From an uncultured Verrucomicrobiae bacterium (GTDB taxonomy: Bacteria > Verrucomicrobiota > Verrucomicrobiia > Chthoniobacterales > UBA10450), in NCBI GenBank assembly GCA_963834385.1, contig CAWIBO010000005.1, positions 736,001-800,000 on the forward strand: a stretch of DNA of 64,000 bases, read 5' to 3'. Position numbers and translations under genes: made by a program. Below, piece after piece: positions 18,837-53,853 of the stretch. The notes under the pieces were generated by a model, which was given only the letters and a program-made list of their open reading frames with translations, searched no databases and was not told the DNA's origin. Positions within the stretch are counted from its first letter, which is position 1, and every line of letters starts with the position of its first letter.

Positions 18837-21325
18837 ATGCCCCTCCCAGAAACACCGCGCCCCGCCAAAGCCGCACCCCTTACCTACGCCGAACCGCCGC
18901 GCGGCTTTGATTTCCGCCAGCTCTGGCATGCCGTCCTCGAGCGCGCCTGGATCGTCATCCTCTGCACCGCTCGCCGGTCTTTTTCTCGCGCTCGGACATC
19001 TCGCCCGTACCCCGAAGATTTATCAGGGCCACATCACGCTCGAAGTCGATGTCGCGGAGCAAGGCATCAATGCCGCCGATTCCGGCGACACCGCCGGGCG
19101 GGTCCGCTCCATGTTCCTCGCCAGCCAGGAAGCGCTCCGCACCATTGAACAGAATCTCACCAACCGTTCCATGCTCGCCCGGGTCATCCGCTCGGAAGGG
19201 CTCGCCTCGGACGAGGGCCGCGCCCTCCTTGGTCACACCGACAAAAAAGCGCCCACACCGCCGCCCGCCCCCGCAAAACCTGCCGCAGCCTCGGAGCGCG
19301 AGTCGGCCTTTACCCCCATCGAGAACGCGCTCGCCGGCGCTCTTGCCGGCATGGTCAAGCCGGTGGTCCGTCGCGGCACCCGCCTGATCGACGTTTATGT
19401 CACGCACACGGACCCCGCCATGGCCCAGCGCCTGGTCGAGGCGGTCGGCCGCGAATACATCCGCGGCTCGGTGGCCCGCCGCGCTTCCTCCACCCAGGAC
19501 ACCCTCCGTTATCTCCTCGAGGAAGAGGAACGGCTGAAAGCGAATTTGCAGAAGAGCGAGGCGGCCGTGGCCGAATACAAAGCGAAGACGCCTGACGCCC
19601 TCCAGCTCGGCGGCGGCGCCGCCTCCACCGGCAGCCAGCAGGGCGCCGGTTCGGGCTCGGGCGGCAGCCGGGGCGGGTTGGTCGAGGATCGGTTGCAGGA
19701 AATGAGCGGGAAGTTCACCGGGGCCAAAACGGAACGGCTCCGACTCGAGGGCGAGCTCGGGCCAGGTCGAACGCGCCGGGGAAGATGTGGACGCGCTCCT
19801 CGCCATTCCCAGCATCGCCAGCGCGCCTGTGGTCATGGACCGCCGCCGCGAGCTGGCGCAGGTGCAGGCGGCCGTGGCCACGCTTTCCCAGCGCTACAAG
19901 GAACAGCATCCCCGCATGATCGCGGCCAAGGCGGCCCTCGAGGAAGTTCAGGCCGCCCTGAAACGCGCCGTGCTCGAGCAGCCCGCCACGCTCCGCAACG
20001 CCCTCCAGCAGGCTCGCGCCACCGAGGAACAAATGGCCGCCGCCGTCACGGAACAGGAGAAAGCCGCCATCGCCCTCAACCGCGCCGCCATTGGCTACCA
20101 GGAACTGGCCCGGCAGGCCGAGACCGACCGCGCGCTCTACGAAAGCGTCCTGCGCCAGATCAAATCCACCGACCTCAGCAAAGGCGTAAAGAGCAACGCC
20201 GTCAGCGTCGTGCAAAATTCACCCTTGCCCGGCCGCCCGATCAGTCCGCAGCCCATGAAAACGATCATGCTCGGCCTTTTCGGCGGTCTCGCCGCCGGCC
20301 TCGGCGTCATCTACGCCCTGAACATGATCGATCGTTCCCTGAAAACGGTGGACGAAGCGGAATCGAACCTCGGCATGCCGGTGCTCGCCGCCGTTCCGGA
20401 AGTGAAAAATCGCGAAGCGTCCAGCCGTCCGAAGGAGGAGATGGAGGGCGAGATCGGGAGCGCCAGTTACCGGCTCCTTGCGGAAGCGCCGGAAGGCCCT
20501 GCGGCCGAGGCCTTCCGCAACCTGCGCGCCGCGCTTTCCTTGCTCGGGCCCGAGGCCGAACGTCGCGTTTTCCTCTTCACCAGCGCGCTCCCGGCGGAAG
20601 GCAAAAGTTTCACCAGCGCGAATTACGCCCTTTCCCTCGCGCAGCAGGGGCACAAGGTGCTCCTGATCGACGGCGATCTGCGCCGGCCGAGTCTCGACAA
20701 GATTTTTCGCCGGGTGCTTCCCCCTAACGCCCGGCCCACGGATGAGTTCGGGATCGTCGATTACCTGATCGGCAACACCACCCTGCAGGAGGCGATGCAT
20801 CCTGTCTCCGCCTCGCAGGTGGACGTGCTCGGGTCGCGCGAGAACCGGCAGGCCACCGTCACCGCCACGGGCGGCGAACTTTTCCTGCTCGCCGGCGGCC
20901 AGCGCGCCCCCAACCCGGCCGAGCTGCTCAGCGGCCACGTCTTTGCCGAGCTGGTCGCGGCCGCTTCCAAGCTTTTCGACCGCGTGGTCATCGACAGCGC
21001 GCCCGTCCTGGCGGTGAGCGATACCCTGCTCATGACCGCCTACGTCCAGACCGTCTGCATGGTGGTGCGCTCCCGCAAAACCCCGCGCAACGCCGTGCAG
21101 CGCGCCCTCGCCATGATCGCCGGCACCGGCATTCGCCCGGCCGGCGTGATCCTGAACCGGATGCCGCGCCAGCGCGGCGCCGGCTACTATTATTACTACG
21201 CGTCGCCCGGCTACGGCGCCGGCGAAGGCGCCTACAGCGGCGCGGGGTATGAGAGGAAGCCGGCTGGGCGCAGCCCGGCTGCCGGTGGTCAGAAGTCTGA
21301 AGTCGGAAATCGGAATTCAGGCTGA
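18837..21325 (+). CDS. wzc: Polysaccharide co-polymerase/tyrosine autokinase; frameshifts near 18965 and 19760
   Basis: YKEQHP, AEAFRNLR, Walker A TSALPAEGKS, LLIDGDLRRP, VIDSAP and C-terminal YYYYY cluster. Confidence 0.9.
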
Positions 21326-21646
21326 TCGCACAAGCGCAGCCGGCTGCCCGCGAGCTGCGGAAGCTTTAGGTCTTAAGCTTTAAGTTTTAAGTGTGCGCGC
21401 GCGCGCTGCGCGGCATCTTCCCCCGCGGAGGGACGAGCTTCTGCTCGTCCAAGCCTGCAGCAAACTAACCAATAACCAATAACCAATAACCAATAACCAA
21501 TAACCAATAACCGCGCCGCCCCCGCCGCCCATCACCGATCACCGATCACCGATCACCGATCACCGATCACCGATCACTGATCACCGATCACTCGCGCCGT
21601 CCCGGCGCCCCCCGGCCTCCGACCTCCGGCACCCTCCGACCTCCGG
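21288..21646. repeat. Mosaic heptamer/hairpin junction with REP-like half
   Basis: TTTTAAG-like tract, GGACGAGC-TTCT-GCTCGTCC hairpin, (TAACCAA)n, (TCACCGA)n, 17-mer hairpin core and (CCGACCT)n. Confidence 0.9.
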
Positions 21647-21895
21647 CTAGCCTTCATTTTCCTGCACGCGAGATCCATTCCCGATCTGCTGATGCAGGCC
21701 GGTCATGGTGAGGAGCGGTAAAATATCGAAGCTCTCACCCTCGTCCTTTGCGTTGAACACAATGACGTAGCCGGCCTTATTCGGCGGAAGGGCAATATAA
21801 TCCCGGTGGGGAACGGAATACTGAAGCCCGTCTGCCATTTTCAGAACAAAAGGCAGATTACTCTCCACCGCTCTCTCAATCTGACTCCGCGTCAC
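21647..21895 (-). CDS. Small hypothetical cargo protein (82 aa)
   Basis: Lower-GC ORF, PFVLKMADG..YSVPHRDYI, sandwiched between repeat junctions. Confidence 0.7.
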   Translation of the reverse strand: MTRSQIERAVESNLPFVLKMADGLQYSVPHRDYIALPPNKAGYVIVFNAKDEGESFDILPLLTMTGLHQQIGNGSRVQENEG

Positions 21896-21959
21896 AACGC
21901 AAACAATATCAACGGCCGCCCGGTCCTTTCAACTCCATTCACCGCCTGGCGGGAACAGT

Positions 21960-22198
21960 TATCGAAGGTGAGATGTCAGTGATCAGCGGTCAGCGCTCGC
22001 CCTTCCGATCTCCGACTCCATCTTCCGGCTGCTTCGCAGCGCCTTTCAGCTTGTCAGCTTTTCAGCATTTTCCCCTCTCCGCTCCCGGCCTCCGACTTCC
22101 GACTTCCTCCCCCTGATAACCGATAACTGACAACTGATCACCGCGCCGTCCCGGCGCCCTGCCTCTTAACTCTTAATTCTTAATTCTTAATTCTTAAT
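21960..22198. repeat. Mosaic heptamer/hairpin junction
   Basis: (TTTCAGC)n, (CCGACTT)n, (GATAACC)n, 17-mer at 22141 and (TTCTTAA)n. Confidence 0.85.
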
Positions 22199-24128
22199 TT
22201 CCCCCGTTCCCCAACAGATCCCCAAATACACCGCCACATAAAGCTGGATCGAAAAGATCTGTAACGGAAAATCCACCAGCGCGTGCAGCGCCACCCCGCC
22301 CAGCGCCAGGACCACCAGCGGAACCAGCAACCGATGCCGCGGCAACCAGGACGGCGGGGAAGAATTTTCGATTCTCGATTTTCGATTCTCGATTGCTCCC
22401 TTCAGCTTCTCGCGTTCTCCTTCCTCCCATTAACCGATAACCGATAACCGATAACCGGCTGCCCGCAGCCTACCGACAACTGATCACCGATTACCGGCCG
22501 CTCCGCGGCCCTTGTCAGCTTTTCAGCGTTTTCTCCTTCCTCCCCATTAACCGATAACCGATCACCGATAACCGGCTGCCCCGCAGCCTCCACCGATAAC
22601 CGATCACCGATTACCGGCCGCTCCGCGGCCCCTGTCAGCTTTTCAGCGTTTTCTTCTTCTTCTTCCCCACTAACCGATAACCGATCACCGATAACCGGCT
22701 GCCCCGCAGCCTCCACCGATAACCGATCACCGATAACCGGCTGCCTCCGCAGCCATCTCCCATCTCCTATCTTCCCGGCCGCTTCGGCCGCTCGCAGCAG
22801 CCGCCCCCCCAAAGAACAGCGCCGCCCAGAGCGCGCCCCCCAGCCACCCCCATTCCAGCAGCGTTTGCAGATAATCCTGGTGCAGATACCGCCACCCTTC
22901 CCGCAGCTCCGTCCCTTCCCCGCGCGCCACGTGCGGAAAGATGGTGCGGAACGTGCCCGGACCGTACCCCAGCAGCCCGGCCTCCGGCACCCCGCGCAGC
23001 GCCGTCCGCGCCGCCGGCCAGCGCAGGTCCTGAGCACACTTTCCCCGGTGTTTTGCCAGCGCTCGATCGGACGATCCAAACGGCTCGCCTGCCCAATGGC
23101 GTAGATGGCCACGACCAGCAGCAGCACCGTGGCCGCGCCGGTGATCTTCTCCGCGCCCCGCATCAAGCCCGCGCACCCGCGGCAAAGCTGCGACGATCAG
23201 CACCAGCATCAGGAGCAACCCGATCGCCTGCGCGGCCCGCGACGTGTTCGAAACCACCGCGCCGGCCGTGACCAGCGCCGCCGCGATCCAGCCCCCGCGC
23301 ACCAGCGGACTCGCGCGATGATGCAACGCCCGGTAAGCCAGACCAAAGACCACCGGCAGGACGAGGTTCAGGTAGGCGCCCGCGTTGGCGTGATAAAAGT
23401 AGGTCGCAAAGAACTGCGGCGGACCGTAACGCGATTCACCCCAGAAAATCATCTCGGCGCCCGTGCCTTTCTGGAGCAACCCCAGCAGCGCGATGGACGT
23501 GCCGGTCAGGGCCACGCCCGTGAGCAGACGCAGAAACCACTGCGGACGCCGGCAAAGATCAGCCACAAAGAGGAGCACGCCCAGGAGAAGCGTGGCTCGC
23601 GTCATCCAGGCGAGACTTACCGCCTTGTCCGCCGACCCCGGCCAGCCCGGCCAGGCCTGGTCAATCGGCACCCAGAGATCAAACTCCGTGTCATAGATCC
23701 CCTTCCCATTCCAGGCCATCGCCCATCCGAGGAGCAGCAAAGCCCCCACGATCCCCCAAAGGACCCACCGCCCCGTTCCCCTTTTTCCTTTTTCCTTTTT
23801 CCTTTTGCCTTCCGCCCCCCTCCTCTTCTCCGACCTCCGACCTCCGACCACCGATAACCGGCCGCTTCGCGGCCTTCTTCCCAATAACCATTAACCAATA
23901 ACCAATAACCGGCGGCTGCCCCGCAGCCGCCCCCACCCACAGCAACAGCACCGCTGCAAGCATCCATTCGAGGATCCGGCCGCTCTCCAGCGTCGTGGTG
24001 CCGTAAGCCCACGGCGCCCAGACCAGCGCCACCACCAAACCCCACCCGGCCACACCGCCCAGCAGCGTAGAAAACTTCCAGCCCCGCGGCAGCGGCGGCA
24101 GCCATTGAATACGCGGTCGACGCGACAT
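22187..24128 (-). CDS. O-antigen ligase/Wzy_C family membrane protein with two internal repeat insertions and frameshifts
   Basis: [30 protein letters not shown] and [13 protein letters not shown]-terminal [17 protein letters not shown] resumes at ~22369 after the repeat block, stop at 22187. Confidence 0.8.
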
Positions 24129-24183
24129 GCGGCCAACACTAAGCCAGGAAGAACCCCGGAAGGAATCGGAAGTTGGTTACTTG

Positions 24184-24612
24184 TTATTTGTTATCAGTTA
24201 TTGGTTCTCGCGCGAAATTCGTTCCCGTTGCCCCGGCGCGTTTAAGATAAGCCATGTAGCCATTCAAGAGACGGACCGCCGTGCTGACGAGATCGCGACC
24301 CTCTTCGAGCATCTCACTCGAAATCATTTTCTCGTCCTGCGCGGCGATCAGATGATCGAGGACTTCCCAGCATGAGCCGCGCGCGTTGCTGCAGAATTTC
24401 GCGTTATCGAGATGATGAAATCGTCCGTAACCCTCCGCGATATTTGCCGTCGTCGAGCGTGCCGCGCGTAAGATTTGATCCCCCAGACGGTATCGCTCCT
24501 CTTTCGGGAGCGCCGGGATTACGGAGCCGGAAACGAATTTCCGTAACTCACGACACGCCTGCCAGCACTCAAGATCTTCAAAGCTCCGAATGGGGGCACG
24601 TTCACCACTCAC
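24184..24612 (-). CDS. Four-helix-bundle protein (23S rRNA IVP/Avd-like family)
   Basis: SFEDLECWQ, LPKEERYRLGDQILRAARS, ANIAEGYGR and ARGS motifs. Confidence 0.92.
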   Translation of the reverse strand: MSGERAPIRSFEDLECWQACRELRKFVSGSVIPALPKEERYRLGDQILRAARSTTANIAEGYGRFHHLDNAKFCSNARGSCWEVLDHLIAAQDEKMISSEMLEEGRDLVSTAVRLLNGYMAYLKRAGATGTNFAREPITDNK

Positions 24613-24825
24613 CGGCTAACGTTATCAGACCGGTCAATCCTCCCGACCAATAACCCATAACGAGTAACCAATAACGATCTTCCCTCACCGCCTCCCAATA
24701 ACCAATAACCAATAACCAGTTACCATTTCCCCTTCTCATCGAGCAGCCTTTATTGTAATTTCAAGAACCGCTTTTCGCCGCGCCTTGCCGCCTCCAGGCA
24801 GCGGGCGGCGGTCGCCCCGCACTCC

Positions 24826-48419: not shown

Positions 48420-50026
48420 AATATCGCTGCGTTTTCTAGTATCGTTAGCCATATTCAGCCTGCGCCAACGCGTTTCTCGACATTATAGGGGCGCAACCAG
48501 CTTCAACCAGCAGGTCCTTCCCCGGAATCGCACAACGATCTCGCGAAGCAGCGTGGGAAAAAGTAGCGATGCCACCAGAATCAGCACGCCACCGAACACC
48601 AGGCCGTCCAGGCGAGAAATTGAAAAGCGGGGTGCGCCGGGCTAACGATTCCAGAAGATGAGTGCCCCTGCTGCTAATGTCGTGGCGATGGACAGAGGGC
48701 ACGATCCTGTTTCCAAACCAGTTTCGCTCCAGGAGACGCGACGAAATCCCCCCGCGATACAAACAGCCACAAATTGCCCGGCCGCCAGGGCCCAGGCGTA
48801 GGAGAGCGAATTACCACCTCCGAGCGCAACCAATATGGCGGGTAAACCGCTGTAAACCGGCGCGGCGACGCTAACACCTGGAAAGGAAAGCCAGCCGTAA
48901 TTGGTTCTTAGCCTGGAAAATTGCGGTAAAAAGCAACGCGGTTCAGACAGCCCAGCGAAGATGGTGCTGGGGGCAATCAAGGATTCGGCCTCGTTTGATT
49001 TCTCCCCATAAAGCAAACGTAAAAGTTGAAATCCGTCCGAAATTATGAACACCGCACTTGGAATGGAAATAAATAGCATCGTCTTGACGAATAACGTGGC
49101 GTGACGCGTAAATGCTCTGGGTCACCGGCGCTTCGCGGCAAGAGAGGATAAACTGTATCCACCACTAACGCCGCGACCCGGCCCCCCGTGGTTGAATACA
49201 AAACCTGGGCTCTGTTCAGAAGACCGACCGGGGCGTATCCGAGTGTAACAGGCAAGACGGCAGCTTCCAGTATTCCTCGCGCTGCCGTAAAAAGCGCCGA
49301 ACCCGAAAGCTGCGCGCCAAACTTCAAGGGCGCGCGATAGCTTTTCCACTGGGGCCATTTCCACCAGGCGGCCGGCGGCTTCCATTTTTCAATCAGCAAC
49401 AAATAGAGCCCCTGAGGAAGTCCATGAAGAAGGTTGTATCCAATAATCACCGCGAACGCGCCAGCGCCCGATAACGCGAGAGCAACGCTACTGATCACTG
49501 TAACGATGGTGGACGCACCCTGCACGAGGCGCAGGGTTCGATAGTTCAGATCGCGCCGCAGACGCGTCAACGCAATCTGATTGGCGAAATCGAAGATGAA
49601 ACCGAAGGAGGCCACGAAAAGAAGGGCGGCCATCGGCCGATAGGGCGACAACGACCAGCAGATTAGCGCGATCGCATTGCACGCAATAAATAAAGCAAGC
49701 TGAATGTAAAATCCGGCACTCCAATGCGCTCCCCAGTCGGGTTCTTCTCCTTCGTGGAGTTGTATCGCCTGCGCTATGAAGTAGCTGGAGCTGAAACAAT
49801 TAATAAGCGCCGTCACGCCGTTCACGGCCGCGACAAGGCCGTACTCCATCGGCGAGAGGAGCCTAACGAGCACGATCATTGTCACGAAGTTCGCAGCCAC
49901 GAGAAACACCTGGAAAAAGCCGCTCCAAGCAAGGCCGTGAAGGATTACTTTTCGTCGATCGACCACGGGCGGTTCGGGTGGCAGCGATGACCCGCCCGGG
50001 GACAGGAACGCCTCATTAGGATCCAT
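48420..50026 (-). CDS. wzx: Wzx oligosaccharide flippase; frameshifted, end approximate
   Basis: LVRLLSPMEYGL, many TM segments and VGLLNRA. Confidence 0.8.
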
Positions 50027-50360
50027 AGTAGTGCTGAGGAAGCAGAGGGGACGTCGATCGATGGTCGCGACCGGAATAACACGCATGAGACGTTGCTTCA
50101 CAATAACAATCCTCCTCAACGAATTCTTCCTCCTGCTTTCTAGGTCCTCCTTCTATTTCTCCGTCTAAGCTCTGCTCTCGTGTCCCGGATCCCCCTTGTG
50201 GCGGCCCAACTGCCCGATTTCTCGGTGTTCCGGGTCTTCAACGTCGCCGGAGTCGCCAGTTGCGCGGCCTTCCAACCCGCGGAGATTCCCAATCAATAGT
50301 TGACGGTGCTGGCGCTGCGACTGGCAGACCGTCAAGACAGATGGACGGATATTTTCAAAA

Positions 50361-51227
50361 GTGAAAGCGCTCAAACATGGCGTGAAGCACGTTTTATGGC
50401 GAGGGCTGCAACTGATGAGTCTCGGCCGTGAGGTAGCCGAATTGAGAGTATTGCGTGGCCCCGCGAAAGGTGTTTGGATGGAAATTGATCTTCGCAAAGA
50501 AGGCTCCTATTGGCTCGGAACTTATGACCAGTGGCTATTGAGCCGGATTCATTTGGAACGACTGGTTAAACCGGGCCACGTCGTTTGGGATTGTGGCGCG
50601 TACATTGGATATTACACGGCTATTCTTCGCCGGTTGGTCGGCGATAACGGCCAGGTGATTACGTTTGAAGCGTCCTCAAAGAACTATCAACGGGTAGCAC
50701 GACTGCCCGAACTCAACGGCTGGAAAAATGTGATCGTGCTTCAAAGGGCCATTGGCCCAGATCATTCAGTCATTGAATTTGTGTCCAACCTCGCCGGAGG
50801 CAGCGGACCATACGGGCTGACTAAGACATATTCAGATAAAGACGTGCTCGAAGTCGAAAAAGTGCGGTGCGTGGGATTGGATGAATTGGTTTACGAGCAG
50901 CAATGCCCGATTCCGGACTTTATGAAATTCGATCTCGAGACTGCGGAAGAGTTCGCATTGCATAACGGACCGAGGCTTTTTTCGGAGAAGCGCCCCCTGC
51001 TGCAACTCGAATTGCACGGTGAAAAGGCCCCTGCCGCGACGGGACAATTTCTTGAGAGGTATGACTATGCCGCGTGGGACGTACTCCAGTTGCCGCTTGG
51101 CACACCGCCTTTCTCCCTTTCAGCGTGTCAGTTTTTCAGTTTTTCAGTTGGATCGTTCGACCATGAACGAGCCGAGCACCAGCACGTCCATCAGTTGGAA
51201 AAGGAGAAAGTAGAAAGTCCAAAGTAG
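50361..51227 (+). CDS. FkbM-family methyltransferase, opposite strand; C-terminus runs into a repeat tract
   Basis: WDCGAYIG, FEAS, MKFDLE.AE and LELH motifs. Confidence 0.85.
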   Translation: MKALKHGVKHVLWRGLQLMSLGREVAELRVLRGPAKGVWMEIDLRKEGSYWLGTYDQWLLSRIHLERLVKPGHVVWDCGAYIGYYTAILRRLVGDNGQVITFEASSKNYQRVARLPELNGWKNVIVLQRAIGPDHSVIEFVSNLAGGSGPYGLTKTYSDKDVLEVEKVRCVGLDELVYEQQCPIPDFMKFDLETAEEFALHNGPRLFSEKRPLLQLELHGEKAPAATGQFLERYDYAAWDVLQLPLGTPPFSLSACQFFSFSVGSFDHERAEHQHVHQLEKEKVESPK

Positions 51228-51553
51228 AAGACTGAGACAAGGCGGCTTTTCACCCTTTTCGCTCTCCCGACCCTTTCTACCTTCCACCTTCAACTTTCTC
51301 CCTTTCGCTCGAGCAAGAAATTACCGAGAGCGAGGACGTCCATCGGTTGGAGAAGTAAAAGGTGCAAAGTCCAAAGTAGAAAACTGAGCAAGCGGCTTTC
51401 AGCCTTTTTGCTCTCCAGATCCTTTTTACTTTCCACCTTCAACTTTCTCCTTTTCGCTCGAGCAAAAAACTACCGAGAGCGAGCACGTCCATCTGGAAGA
51501 AGAAGTAGAAAGTGAAAAGTCCAAATTAGAAGCTGAGCAGGGAGCCGATCGCC
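51144..51553 (-). repeat. Array of three displaced carbamoyltransferase C-terminal tails separated by heptamer-rich spacers
   Basis: ATGGACGT starts at 51492, 51343 and 51191 encode MDVLALGSFLLERKGES*, MDVLALGNFLLERKGES* and MDVLVLGSFMVERSN*. Confidence 0.9.
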
Positions 51554-53387
51554 CTAAACGCTTGGCGCCCTTTCAATATGGAAACTGCCTAACACTAAGA
51601 CATCCATTTTGGTGCGGAGAAAGCAGTCGAGGGCTTCTTCCGGGCGGCAGACGACCGGTTCGTTCTCGTTGAAGCTGGTGTTGAGAACCAAAGGCACGCG
51701 AGGTCAGGGATCGGAAGTCGGAGATCAGCTGGTGATAAAGGGGGTTTGTCTCCTGGTGCACGGTCTGGAGCCGCCCCGAACCGTCGGCGTGGCAGACCGC
51801 CGGGATCTGGCTGCGCTTCTCTTCCCGGATCTGGAACACTTGCATCATGAACGGGACGTCGTCCTCCTGCTCAAACCATTCCCCCACGGCTTCCCGCAGG
51901 ATGGAGGGCGCAAACGGCCGGAATGATTCGCGCCGCTTGATCTTGGCATTCAGGATATCTTTCATGTCGGCCCGGCGCGGGTCGCCCAGGATCGACCGGT
52001 TTCCCAAGGCGCGCGGACCCCACTCGAGGCGGCCCTGAAACCAGCCGACGACGCGCCCCTCGGCGATGGCCGCCGCTGTCCGCGTCGTCAGCTCGGTCGA
52101 AACGCTGAAAACTGAAACGCTGAGATGCTGAAACTCCGGATTCCGGCCCTCTCGCAACCCTCGCTCGCGCAACAGCTGCTCGATCTCAGCGTCCGAAAAC
52201 TCAGGGCCGAGGAAAGCGCTATCGAGACCTCGTCTCGATAGAAGCTGGTAGTTGGAAGTCGGAAGATTGGCCGATTCTTTCAGCTTTTCAGTTGTCAGCT
52301 TTTCAGCTTTTCCGTCGGCGAGCTTCGCCGCGACGACCGCCGCCGCACCGATCGCGCCGCCGGCGTCGCCGGCCGCGGCCGGCAGATACATCCGCCGAAA
52401 CGGCGTGTGCAGATACACTTTGCCGTTGGCCACGGAGTTCATGGCGCACCCGCCGGAGAGGGCCAGATTCTCCGACGGTCGTGCCCGATGAGTTGCGTTC
52501 AGCAAGGCAAAGAACGCTTCCTCGTACATGGCCTGGACCGAGCGCGCGATGTCCTTGTGCTTTTGCTCGAGCGGTTCCTCCTTCGCCCGCGGCGGCCCCA
52601 AAAGCTCGGCCAGTTTGTCGGTGTACAGGATCCCACCTCAGGGGCGCAATCTTTCCAGCTGTAAGAGACGTTGTCGGTGTGATGCCGGAAATAACGCAGG
52701 TTAAGCCGGAACGTGCCGTCGGACTGCACCCGGACAATCTGGCGCATCTGCGGCAGGAACCGCGGCTCGCCGTAGGGCGCCAGGCCCATCACCTTGTATT
52801 CGTCTCCATAATGCGGAAAGCCGATGAACTGGGTGAGCGCCGAATAAAAGATGCCAAGCGAATGCGGAAAATAGACGCGCTGATCAATCGTGATCTCGGG
52901 CCCGCTACCCCACCCGATCGCGGTGCTGGCGAAATCGCCGAATCCATCGATGGAAACGCAGGCCGCCTCCGTGAACCCCGACACCAGGAAAGCCGAGGCC
53001 AGATGGGCATGATGATGCTCCACGTGATGCAGCTCGGCTGACAACGACATCCCATAGGCCTCTTCCAAGGCTTCCTTGGCGCCGCCGGCGCTCCGGATAT
53101 TGCGAATCTTCTCCAGCATCAGCCGCGGATCAGGCCGATGCCGCAGGACAAAGGCCAGCCGACGCCAGTTGTTCACCCCGGGCTTCCGATTGACCGCGAT
53201 ATGGTCAACGTCGCGCAGGGTGGCTCCCGCCTCCGCGCAGACAGTAATCAATCGCTTGCGTGGGAAGCCCGGCCCAATGTTTGATTCGCCGAAAGCGTTC
53301 CTCCTCCACCGCCGCGACCAGCTCGCCATCCTTGAAGAGGCAGGCAGCGGAATCGCCGTGATAAGCGTTTAGCCCTAAAATGAGCAT
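51554..53387 (-). CDS. NodU/CmcH-family carbamoyltransferase; frameshifted, with two in-frame repeat insertions
   Basis: HGDSAA..EEERF.R.KH, EHHHAH, YKVMGLAPYG, GGCAMN, GPRALGNRS and RESFRPFAP; ends TKMDVLVLGSFHIERAPSV*. Confidence 0.92.
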
Positions 53388-53435
53388 TTTAGGGCGAAAA
53401 GCTGAAATGCTGACACGCTGAAAAGCTGAAATTAC

Positions 53436-53810
53436 TCATGTCGCCCGTTCACTCCGTCGCAACTTGCTGATCATCGTTGTAAAGACTGCCAATAGTTCGT
53501 GTGATTCTGTTTTCAGATGGATAAGCTTTTCGTCCTTAATGTCACACTCCTCGTGGAGTAATTCGAGCCAGAGCTGGGATTCATCGGCTTCTTGAAGCAA
53601 TCCATCAAGCTTGGAGCAAAACTCCGCCTCGGAGCGCGCTCGAGAAGCTTCACGGGCGTGCGCGGCCACCGATGTCCCCGCCCGCAAAAGTTGGCGCCCA
53701 AGTATTTGTACTTCTCCGCGCTGCGTTGGGAGCCTGACATACAGTCGAATAATCTCGGAGGCATATCGTTTCGTACGGTCACGCAGTTCTTCAGAAAGTC
53801 GCATCGCCAA
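53436..53810 (-). CDS. Four-helix-bundle protein (23S rRNA IVP/Avd-like family)
   Basis: LRDRTK, QLLRAGTSVAAH.REA.RARS and EADES..WLELL motifs. Confidence 0.92.
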   Translation of the reverse strand: MAMRLSEELRDRTKRYASEIIRLYVRLPTQRGEVQILGRQLLRAGTSVAAHAREASRARSEAEFCSKLDGLLQEADESQLWLELLHEECDIKDEKLIHLKTESHELLAVFTTMISKLRRSERAT

Positions 53811-53853
53811 ATTTCAGCTTTTCAGCGTTTCAGTCTTTCAGCTTTTGCTTTTT

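Follow-up and report, generated by a model that had tools for sequence, protein, structure and literature searches.

A stack of repeated carbamoyltransferase gene ends in a Chthoniobacterales genome: a possible array of recombination scars

The gene of a sugar-modifying enzyme, a carbamoyltransferase, in an uncultured soil Verrucomicrobiae bacterium (Chthoniobacterales, UBA10450; GenBank assembly GCA_963834385.1) is followed by further copies of its own 3' end. The gene lies on the minus strand of a 64,000-nucleotide (nt) stretch of contig CAWIBO010000005.1 (positions 736,001 to 800,000), here termed the window. Its last 15-17 codons, the 'tail', are present in four head-to-tail copies that make up a stack of 464 nt between convergent genes; the first copy completes the gene and three others lie displaced behind it. 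Stacks are also found in relatives, and in one of these a tail with its adjoining spacer has been copied between two diverged gene ends by homologous recombination. These observations suggest that the conserved 3' end is a landing pad where foreign alleles recombine by homology, in part out of register, and the stack would then be an array of recombination scars. This reading is given a probability of roughly 0.55. The stack is of interest because a tiny module recurs in five genera and ties hairpins made of heptamer tracts to a coding landmark.

Structure of the stack

The gene and the stack consist of the following parts, all on the minus strand (GC3, G+C content at third codon positions).

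51608..53387, carbamoyltransferase gene body, with Pfam domains Carbam_trans_N and Carbam_trans_C; NodU/CmcH-type
51554..51607, tail 1, attached to the gene, MDVLVLGSFHIERAPSV and stop; GC3 0.46; opens a 115-nt 'class A' module
51493..51553, spacer 1, ending in a CT-rich heptamer tract; CT arm only
51439..51492, tail 2, MDVLALGSFLLERKGES and stop; last five codons and stop lie within the purine-rich arm of the next hairpin
51344..51438, spacer 2, a hairpin whose purine arm (a heptamer tract) and CT-rich arm are separated by a loop of ~45 nt
51290..51343, tail 3, MDVLALGNFLLERKGES and stop; 38 of 42 nt shared with tail 2
51192..51289, spacer 3, a hairpin of the same make-up as in spacer 2
51144..51191, tail 4, MDVLVLGSFMVERSN and stop; host-like codons, GC3 0.85; conserved residues all intact
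51095..51143, stretch behind tail 4, an octamer tract and then a purine stretch complementary to the CT arm before tail 4

A preliminary description of the window had reported the four tails on the minus strand with spacings of 115, 149 and 152 nt. This was borne out: the tails start at 51607, 51492, 51343 and 51191, they are mutually out of frame, and nowhere else in the 2.9-Mb genome does the motif turn up in a six-frame scan. The inserts between the tails are 61, 95 and 98 nt long, too short to code for protein. The inverted heptamer-tract arms that had been noticed in the two distal spacers are also confirmed. They are 32 nt long and 81-84% complementary, with predicted folds of -42.8 kcal/mol for spacer 2 (z-score -5.4; the folded stretch, 51344-51450, takes in the end of tail 2) and -41.8 kcal/mol for spacer 3 (z-score -2.9). 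The purine arm provides the final five codons and the stop of both tail 2 and tail 3. Spacer 1 has no fold of its own (z-score +0.7); it shows homology with the right arm in spacers 2 and 3 (87-88% over 26-31 nt) and with spacers in four other genera. AAAGTAG is repeated 4.3 times at 51200-51229, and the octamer tract behind tail 4 consists of 2.8 copies of TCAGTTTT (51128-51149, plus strand). Tail 4 is flanked by an arm pair of its own, with 13-nt arms that are 92% complementary. Because CT and purine arms alternate along the stack, each displaced tail can also occupy a hairpin loop.

The units are not all of one kind. Tandem Repeats Finder reports a 149-nt period at 51181-51539 (2.4 copies, 84% matches), and units 2 and 3, of 149 and 152 nt, are 89% identical across 130 nt. 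They are the only head-to-tail units of equal length with identity over both tail and spacer; the 115-nt unit 1 has in common with the others just the tail and the CT arm. Of 42 nt compared, 38 agree between tails 2 and 3, 28 between tails 3 and 4 and 21 between tails 1 and 2. The stack had been likened in logic to an integron or a CRISPR (clustered regularly interspaced short palindromic repeats) array, i.e. to a chronological record of insertions. This view is not supported: units 2 and 3 are a local tandem duplication, and the array therefore need not be a strict chronological record.

There is a codon gradient along the stack, as originally described. GC3 over the first 13 codons is 0.46, 0.62, 0.69 and 0.85 in tails 1 to 4, and it is 0.77 in the last 30 codons of the gene body ahead of tail 1 (51608-51697). 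The accompanying statement that many differences between tails are synonymous is correct only in part. By the Nei-Gojobori method tail 1 differs from tails 2-4 by 8.7-11.5 synonymous but also by 6.5-7.5 non-synonymous changes, and the differences touch all four bases. The proportions of synonymous (pS) and non-synonymous (pN) differences are at least 1 and 0.21-0.24, respectively; the working tails of different genomes have a mean pS of 0.81 and a mean pN of 0.15 (946 pairs). Since synonymous sites are saturated, a ratio of non-synonymous to synonymous change over 13 codons cannot tell distinct homologues from a live and a dead copy in the window genome, and the comparison does not separate these two models there.

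Stacks and a shared module in related genomes

How widespread is the arrangement? The window genome (G000; 2.9 Mb, 5 contigs, completeness 89.6%) was compared with 355 genomes of its family. With a degenerate pattern for the tail start, 49 of the 355 gave a match, and none did with a reversed-pattern control; the tally includes one match in G053, which enters no other result. Sixty matched places were listed, 57 of them outside G000, and 46 of the 57 were fetched. Those left unfetched are G044:C198, G046:C30, G053, G073, G158 and G191, together with five repeat matches that fall within fetched loci. Two fetched loci of G253, on two contigs, are identical across the 1400 nt compared, and the sample comprises 46 distinct loci, counting G000. 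Extra tails were scored with an nhmmer profile of tails at E <= 1e-5.

The same gene is indeed found with other tails and other unit numbers, from two to four tails in six of the 46 loci. The remaining 40 loci have a single tail, mostly ending in ...ERKS or ...ERKN before the stop. The six stacks are:

G000 (window), 4 tails
G104, 4 tails
G259, 2 tails, 116 nt apart
G005, 2 tails, 113 nt apart
G253, 3 tails, one of them decayed and found by eye (MNVLFLAGF)
G010, 2 tails, 779 nt apart

Five of the stacks, each from a different genus, share a module that consists of the tail in use and its spacer. It measures 115 nt in G000, 127 in G104, 116 in G259, 113 in G005 and 116 in G253, and the homology runs over its full length, the non-coding part included. 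In all five the CT-rich heptamer tract of the module directly abuts the ATGGA of the next tail, which is of resident, native type: the displaced tails are of the ...SFFVERK kind also found in single-tail relatives on the same gene branch. In G259, G005 and G253 the stop codon that ends the tail in use and the ATG of its successor overlap (..TGATGG..). The displaced tails are intact in G000 (tails 2-4), frameshifted in G259 and heavily decayed in G253, and this spread of decay points to displacements of different ages. A module-type C-terminus (ERATSAL...) is also present as the sole tail of G176, where it lacks the CT tract.

A second layout has cargo between the tails. In cargo-type stacks the tails enclose 779-1202 nt with nucleotidyltransferase or AbrB/PIN-like genes and small unknown open reading frames (ORFs); no integrase was seen in this cargo on reading by eye. 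The cargo-type duplications begin 12 to ~290 nt upstream of ATGGA. In G010 the duplicated end begins 12 nt before it, and in G104 and G253 the duplicated 3' fragments exceed the tail by about 290 and 140 nt. The two tails of G010 differ by six synonymous and no non-synonymous changes, as would be expected for the ends of two working alleles brought together. Small genes of toxin-antitoxin or 'selfish' type also lie behind single tails (by eye: nucleotidyltransferases, 23S-rRNA intervening-sequence (IVS) proteins, HigB-like and CopG-like proteins). A single tail in G249 is followed by the small-ORF cargo known from G253, where it comes after the module and the decayed tail.

The G253 loci (L017/L018) are unusual in another way. 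The module-bearing carbamoyltransferase is internally deleted, its first ~35 codons being joined to its last ~100, and the second copy is a 3' fragment only; the same 1.4 kb is present on two contigs. G253 thus seems to keep the scars without a working gene.

Is the double tail found outside the family? All species genomes and metagenome contigs were scanned for two tails 105-135 nt apart, and stacks of this gene appeared in Chthoniobacterales/Verrucomicrobiae records only. Among genome contigs five stretches were recovered, four in three such records and one an unrelated repeat (Desulfamplus). The metagenome contigs gave three stretches at this spacing, all unrelated, and no new cases.

Copying of the module by homologous recombination

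The clearest indication of mechanism comes from G104. This genome has a second, diverged 3' fragment 1.2 kb downstream of the gene, behind an AbrB/PIN-like pair, and both copies carry the module. Identity between the two copies varies along their length:

Upstream flank, 69% (172/249)
45 nt ahead of the tail, 93% (42/45)
Tail 1, 100% (54/54)
Spacer, 97% (71/73)
Resident tails behind the module, 81% (34/42)

The block is nearly identical within diverged flanks, and the module has therefore been copied by homologous recombination. The tract is a recent one, of gene conversion or homologous recombination, for which the conserved ...PEEALDCFLRT.. block on one side and the resident tail on the other served as arms. 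An insertion enzyme would not leave this footprint. An in-frame CTACTTT tract is also present in G104, 123 nt upstream of its tail.

The preliminary description had proposed repeated insertion at a fixed site, each event supplying a new tail and pushing the old one downstream. The comparative data support one half of this proposal: tail-bearing pieces have been set before a resident tail more than once in the family, as indicated by the stacks in six of 46 loci, the five-genus module, the G104 block and the base composition of the tails. The preceding 90 nt exceed the tail in use in GC3 in all five module-bearing genomes (these are kin, and hence not independent cases); among single-tail loci the tail is the lower of the two in 21 of 37, the mean difference being -0.01. 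The other half, a fixed-site machinery, is not supported, with non-coding spacers, no recombinase among the ORFs scanned at 43-59 kb of the window, no hit to integron attC sites and no spacer copy elsewhere in the genome.

The module itself seems to be old. Between genera its non-tail part is 57-70% identical, tail 1 67-79% and the 279 nt upstream 66-81%. Within a genome tails 1 and 2 match at only 21-26 of 42 nt, which is less than tail 1 shows between genera. The displaced tails of different genera are 55-81% alike, while synonymous sites of the working genes are saturated (pS 0.8 to above 1). In the gene tree all five module bearers and 12 single-tail loci lie on one side of a branch with a support of 98 in the Shimodaira-Hasegawa-like approximate likelihood ratio test (SH-aLRT), and the stack label, with the cargo-type G010 included, requires at least three changes on supported branches and five on the best tree. 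These data are read here as an old module repeatedly placed before native tails by allele exchange or, equivalently, as native tails with their downstream DNA placed behind the module. Stacks of up to four tails are read as out-of-register exchange between stack-bearing alleles plus local tandem duplication, as in units 2 and 3.

How might the stack have originated?

The proposed course of events is as follows. The last ~45 nt of the gene and the ~45 nt before them are the most conserved DNA of a variable polysaccharide locus, and DNA of foreign alleles with the same conserved end may recombine there, by homologous recombination or gene conversion. An exchange in register would simply swap the tail. 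An exchange out of register, or a single crossover with a circularised piece, would put a new tail and spacer on the gene and push the resident tail downstream. The 113-127-nt module, a tail with its CT-rich heptamer tract, would have persisted in one branch of the gene family and been copied before native tails. For the window, the anatomy leads us to infer a sequence of three steps: a tail with a heptamer-arm hairpin would have been put before the native tail 4, this unit would have been tandemly duplicated to give units 2 and 3, and the 115-nt module would have been put before tail 2. The cargo-type layouts of G010, G104 and G253 may be products of a single crossover between the chromosome and a circularised gene-end piece, as general recombination genetics would suggest.

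Several points weigh against this course of events. The module has diverged about as much as the gene, which fits long co-inheritance after one old event, and one origin followed by losses is compatible with the gene tree. G000 is the sole member of its genus among the 355 genomes searched; with no close relative, no recombination breakpoint is demonstrable in the window itself, and a mosaic test of sliding-window identity to nine relatives is flat at 60-85%, with no breakpoint. Homologous exchange through an arm of ~45 nt is inefficient. The founding event that created the junction of CT tract and ATGGA is left unexplained.

Could the stack have formed without any foreign DNA? A single old duplication of a tail and its tract hairpin, followed by unequal crossing-over within lineages and neutral decay, would account for the plain duplication of units 2 and 3 with its 149-nt period, for the position of all module bearers on one side of a well-supported branch and for a module divergence that tracks that of the gene. 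Simple duplications of gene ends also occur elsewhere in G000, as in a 147-nt case on contig C2 described below. Such an origin is harder to reconcile with tails 1 and 2, which match at so few positions although the displaced tails of G000 retain every conserved residue, and with displaced tails that are still 55-81% alike across genera despite saturated synonymous sites. The extent of decay differs widely among genomes, the G104 block represents recent copying into a different resident tail, and GC3 of the tail in use falls under that of its own gene body in five of five cases. Purely internal duplication and decay is thus considered unlikely. That the stack is an artefact of assembly, in which strains were merged into a chimera or a repeat was wrongly joined from error-prone long reads, is highly improbable. 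There are frame breaks in the essential genes rpoC and gyrA, and three in the carbamoyltransferase gene alone, but the units differ by 11-50%, hence they are not stutter copies, and five other genomes share the architecture. A stack of 464 nt would moreover be shorter than typical long reads, which weighs against an artefact if such reads were used.

Two further explanations were considered. In one, a dedicated miniature cassette of tail and spacer, with the heptamer arms as recombination sites, is inserted by a site-specific or structure-specific enzyme at a fixed site before ATGGA and builds a polarised chronological array. Every hairpin-type unit does start at the same ATGGA and every spacer does end in a homologous CT arm; the arms make long hairpins, displaced tails can sit in the loop between a CT arm and a purine arm, and GC3 climbs monotonically from tail 1 to tail 4. 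Heptamer-arm hairpins are also a pervasive and unexplained class in the lineage. G000 has, however, no other genome copy of the spacers, no multi-tail stack at other genes, no recombinase among the ORFs scanned and no match to the integron attC profile in the stack, while the double-tail scans returned this gene in Chthoniobacterales/Verrucomicrobiae records only. Nor is the site fixed, because the cargo-type duplications start anywhere from 12 to about 290 nt before ATGGA. Enzymatic insertion of this sort is quite doubtful. A variant merits mention with the same reserve: the 113-127-nt module might be a selfish miniature cassette whose heptamer-arm hairpin, with the resident tail in its loop, is a substrate of structure-specific recombination or template switching. 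Its insertion would cost the host nothing, because the module carries a working replacement of the last 15 codons of its target. If so, repeated hits would accumulate along a coding sequence as a polarised record of earlier events, and the heptamer-repeat hairpins of Verrucomicrobia, cyanobacteria and candidate phyla would be tied to a mechanism of mobility. In the other explanation the arrangement is kept for function, with the hairpins as a bidirectional terminator or processing site and the tails as coupled short ORFs or spare C-termini. The location between convergent genes, the stability of the hairpins and the overlap of stop and ATG in G259, G005 and G253 are what one might expect of it. 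Yet there is no terminator-like site in the stack and no Rfam family at threshold, 40 of 46 loci manage without a stack, and the displaced-tail peptides vary in length and frame, being mutually out of frame in G000 and broken in G259 and G253. A function of this type is very unlikely.

Search for mobility functions and other copies

What might have moved these sequences? No recombinase or reverse transcriptase is present among the ORFs scanned at 43-59 kb. In blastn-short searches of G000 no other copy of a spacer or unit was found at E < 0.01 outside the stack, the remaining matches being 14-26 nt long. A strong downstream copy of the last 14 residues (score >= 45) was found for nine of 5429 ORF ends and for none of the controls. 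No other 3'-end stack came to light in the genome: the ORF-end hits inspected are simple duplications or dispersed repeats, and a self-blastn for local direct repeats in G000 gave 268 pairs, mostly dispersed repeat families, with no multi-tail stack. One of the simple cases is a tandem duplication of 147 nt at C2:856362-856649 (90.5% identity), which takes in the last 17 codons (..AALVGVGNALVNALVF, then stop) of a 523-amino-acid (aa) ORF and a downstream hairpin. Rfam returned no family at threshold in the stack, and two sub-threshold hits to microRNA precursors are generic hairpins.

G000 does have an integron. A sedentary chromosomal integron lies at C5:64630-82257, on the same contig as the window but outside it. 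Its integrase gene intI (TIGR02249; C5:81295-82257) scores 468.5 bits against a cut-off of 265 and is ~700 kb from the stack; the further TIGR02249 matches in G000, all weak, are on contig C2. With an nhmmer profile built from 14 of its attC sites, 25 sites are found in G000 at E <= 1e-4, of which 24 are at C5:64630-79399, left of intI, and one at C5:389188-389352. The sites are ~130 nt long, with ..CTAAC...GTTAGR.. boxes. In C5:786000-788000 the profile finds nothing, even with E <= 10, and in the stack arms AAC/GTT is found next to the loop only, not at the outer ends (by eye). The sequence GTTAGGC in tail 1 matches the attC core consensus, but the modules of the other four genera lack it, and the match is therefore taken as chance.

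Other classes of repeat or diversifying element were also considered. A miniature inverted-repeat transposable element (MITE) would be expected in many copies, and copies of the unit or spacer in G000 are confined to the stack; the tails, which would be its target duplications, match at 38, 28 and 21 of 42 nt for pairs 2/3, 3/4 and 1/2, differences which later allele replacement could explain. Nor does the stack have the near-identical repeats and unique spacers of a CRISPR array: its repeated parts match at 21-38 of 42 nt and its 'spacers' are homologous to each other. A link to a diversity-generating retroelement (DGR), through the neighbouring 23S-rRNA-IVS/Avd-like gene of the 23S_rRNA_IVP family, which includes the DGR protein Avd, was rejected. 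The neighbour stands alone: no reverse transcriptase was found among the ORFs scanned, and the differences between tails are spread over all four bases.

Comparison with known systems

Displacement of a gene end by incoming DNA has a precedent. In Escherichia coli K-12, insertion of the element e14 into the 3' end of icd leaves a C-terminal pseudogene, icdC, according to the summary in PMC13626634 (citing Hill et al. 1989). As summarised there, the incoming DNA brings a replacement gene end, the resident end is left silent downstream, and the copies differ mostly conservatively, all of which resembles the stack. On the same account, e14 differs in being a 15-kb prophage with its own site-specific recombination and a single displaced copy, whereas the stack has non-coding inserts of 61-98 nt, three displaced copies, heptamer arms and evidence of homologous recombination. 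In the window and in the cargo-bearing relatives, direct repeats of the 3' end flank the inserts and the proximal copy completes the gene, as with e14; no insert-encoded integrase is present in the window inserts or in the cargo read by eye. The stack is thus a variation on gene-end displacement as in e14/icd, and differs in size, stacking, heptamer arms and the lack of an integrase.

A second comparison is with tandem duplication and unequal crossing-over, to which the merodiploids formed during natural transformation also belong (PMC3784515). The parallel is that repeats out of register gain or lose whole units, and units 2 and 3 are such a case. The stack differs in that its units are of mixed ancestry, tails 1 and 2 matching at only half of their positions (21/42 nt), and each event rewrites the C-terminus because the repeat is the coding end of a gene. 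In homology-facilitated illegitimate recombination (PMC3240628), one end of the incoming DNA is anchored by homology and the other joins elsewhere. By analogy, this process could have created the first duplication and the cargo-type inserts. In the stack, however, the junction of CT arm and ATGGA is identical in all hairpin units, which fits one founding event with homologous spread better than repeated illegitimate joins. For the tandem lipoprotein cluster of Staphylococcus aureus, the evolutionary unit is reported to be the 3' part of one ORF, the spacer and the 5' part of the next ORF (PMC2568036). That unit resembles the stack in that recombination takes place at conserved gene ends and what moves is a gene end plus spacer; on this description the cluster consists of full tandem paralogues, whereas the stack repeats the last 15-17 codons only.

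Integron arrays share with the stack a polarised series of short units with an imperfect inverted repeat of ~100 nt at the end of each, and in some relatives a toxin-antitoxin-like cargo. The stack arms differ in that they are without the terminal RYYYAAC/GTTRRRY boxes seen in the attC sites of G000 itself.

The spacers also resemble the short tandemly repeated repetitive (STRR) sequences, heptanucleotide tandem repeats of cyanobacteria that were reportedly described by Mazel and colleagues in 1990. The spacer arms are likewise short tandem 7-mers, and G000 contains 1363 merged tracts with a period of 6-10 nt and many different words. An inverted pair of tracts also brackets the neighbouring 23S-rRNA-IVS-protein gene. 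We know of no case in which STRR-type repeats accompany stacked copies of a gene end, and full-text searches on STRR/heptanucleotide hairpins and on Chthoniobacterales heptamer repeats returned nothing on such an arrangement; no wider absence is claimed. Elsewhere in the window, 21288-24718 is dense in short heptamer tracts of many words (among them AACCGAT, AACCAAT and ACCTCCG), with 113-nt tandem units at 22402-22754.

What would it mean if recombination at a conserved gene end is the correct reading? The stack would be a clear natural example of a short conserved gene end that works as a portable homology arm, by which variable polysaccharide loci gain foreign DNA while the enzyme is retained. 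It would also mean that a tiny non-coding passenger, a tail with its heptamer-tract spacer, can persist for long periods across genera. Heptamer-repeat hairpins gain a testable context, as their gain and loss can be traced against a coding landmark that can be dated. Annotators would also be warned that small ORFs and unusual C-termini found after genes of this kind are scars. At present the stack does not speak for a new class of adaptive array.

The carbamoyltransferase gene and its neighbourhood

The gene body is spread over four frames in the assembly, with three breaks near 53240, 52640 and 51700 as located by tblastn with the protein of a relative (G024). Within each frame the match is stop-free and 68-86% identical; the open frames of relatives are 587-680 aa long. 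Are the breaks real? In G000 rpoC (C3:~160440) and gyrA (C5:~551975) are also frame-broken, and one or two aminoacyl-tRNA synthetase genes are apparently split; rpoB, ileS, dnaE and secA are whole. Indel errors are thus present in the assembly, seemingly about one per several kb of coding sequence. Because rpoC and gyrA are broken too, the breaks in the carbamoyltransferase gene may be assembly errors and not marks of a pseudogene. The neighbouring flippase gene is likewise frame-broken, by eye, at window position ~49080 (49043-50119 and 48642-49079).

The convergent gene on the other side of the stack is the following.

50361..51227, plus strand, FkbM-type methyltransferase ORF; Pfam domain stops at residue 236 of 288

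From 51144 on, the final ~28 codons of this ORF are the reverse complement of tail 4 and then of the CT tract of spacer 3. The frame stays open through the octamer tract, tail 4 and some of the CT arm, all in reverse complement, and the C-terminus of the protein on the opposite strand is thus rewritten by the stack as well.

The ORFs scanned at 43-59 kb include a flippase, FkbM-type methyltransferases and WecG-type glycosyltransferases, and also a 23S-rRNA-IVS protein, an AbiEii-like protein and a DEAD-box helicase. The 23S-rRNA-IVS-protein gene (53436-53810, minus strand; PF05635) has a WecG-type glycosyltransferase gene on one side and the carbamoyltransferase start on the other. The inverted pair of tracts that brackets it is made of AAAAGCTG octamers (53396-53431 and 53812-53846); no target duplication was seen around this cassette.

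Another inverted pair of octamer tracts is present within the carbamoyltransferase coding sequence itself, at 52099-52134 and 52278-52312, in the linker between the two domains. These tracts are translated in frame, as ..KAEKLTTEKLKE.. and ..EFQHLSVSVFSVS.., and at the same linker site relatives hold different inserts that align poorly. The start codon of the gene is enclosed by a palindrome with 10-nt arms (GCCCTAAAAT..ATTTTAGGGC), at 53372-53395.

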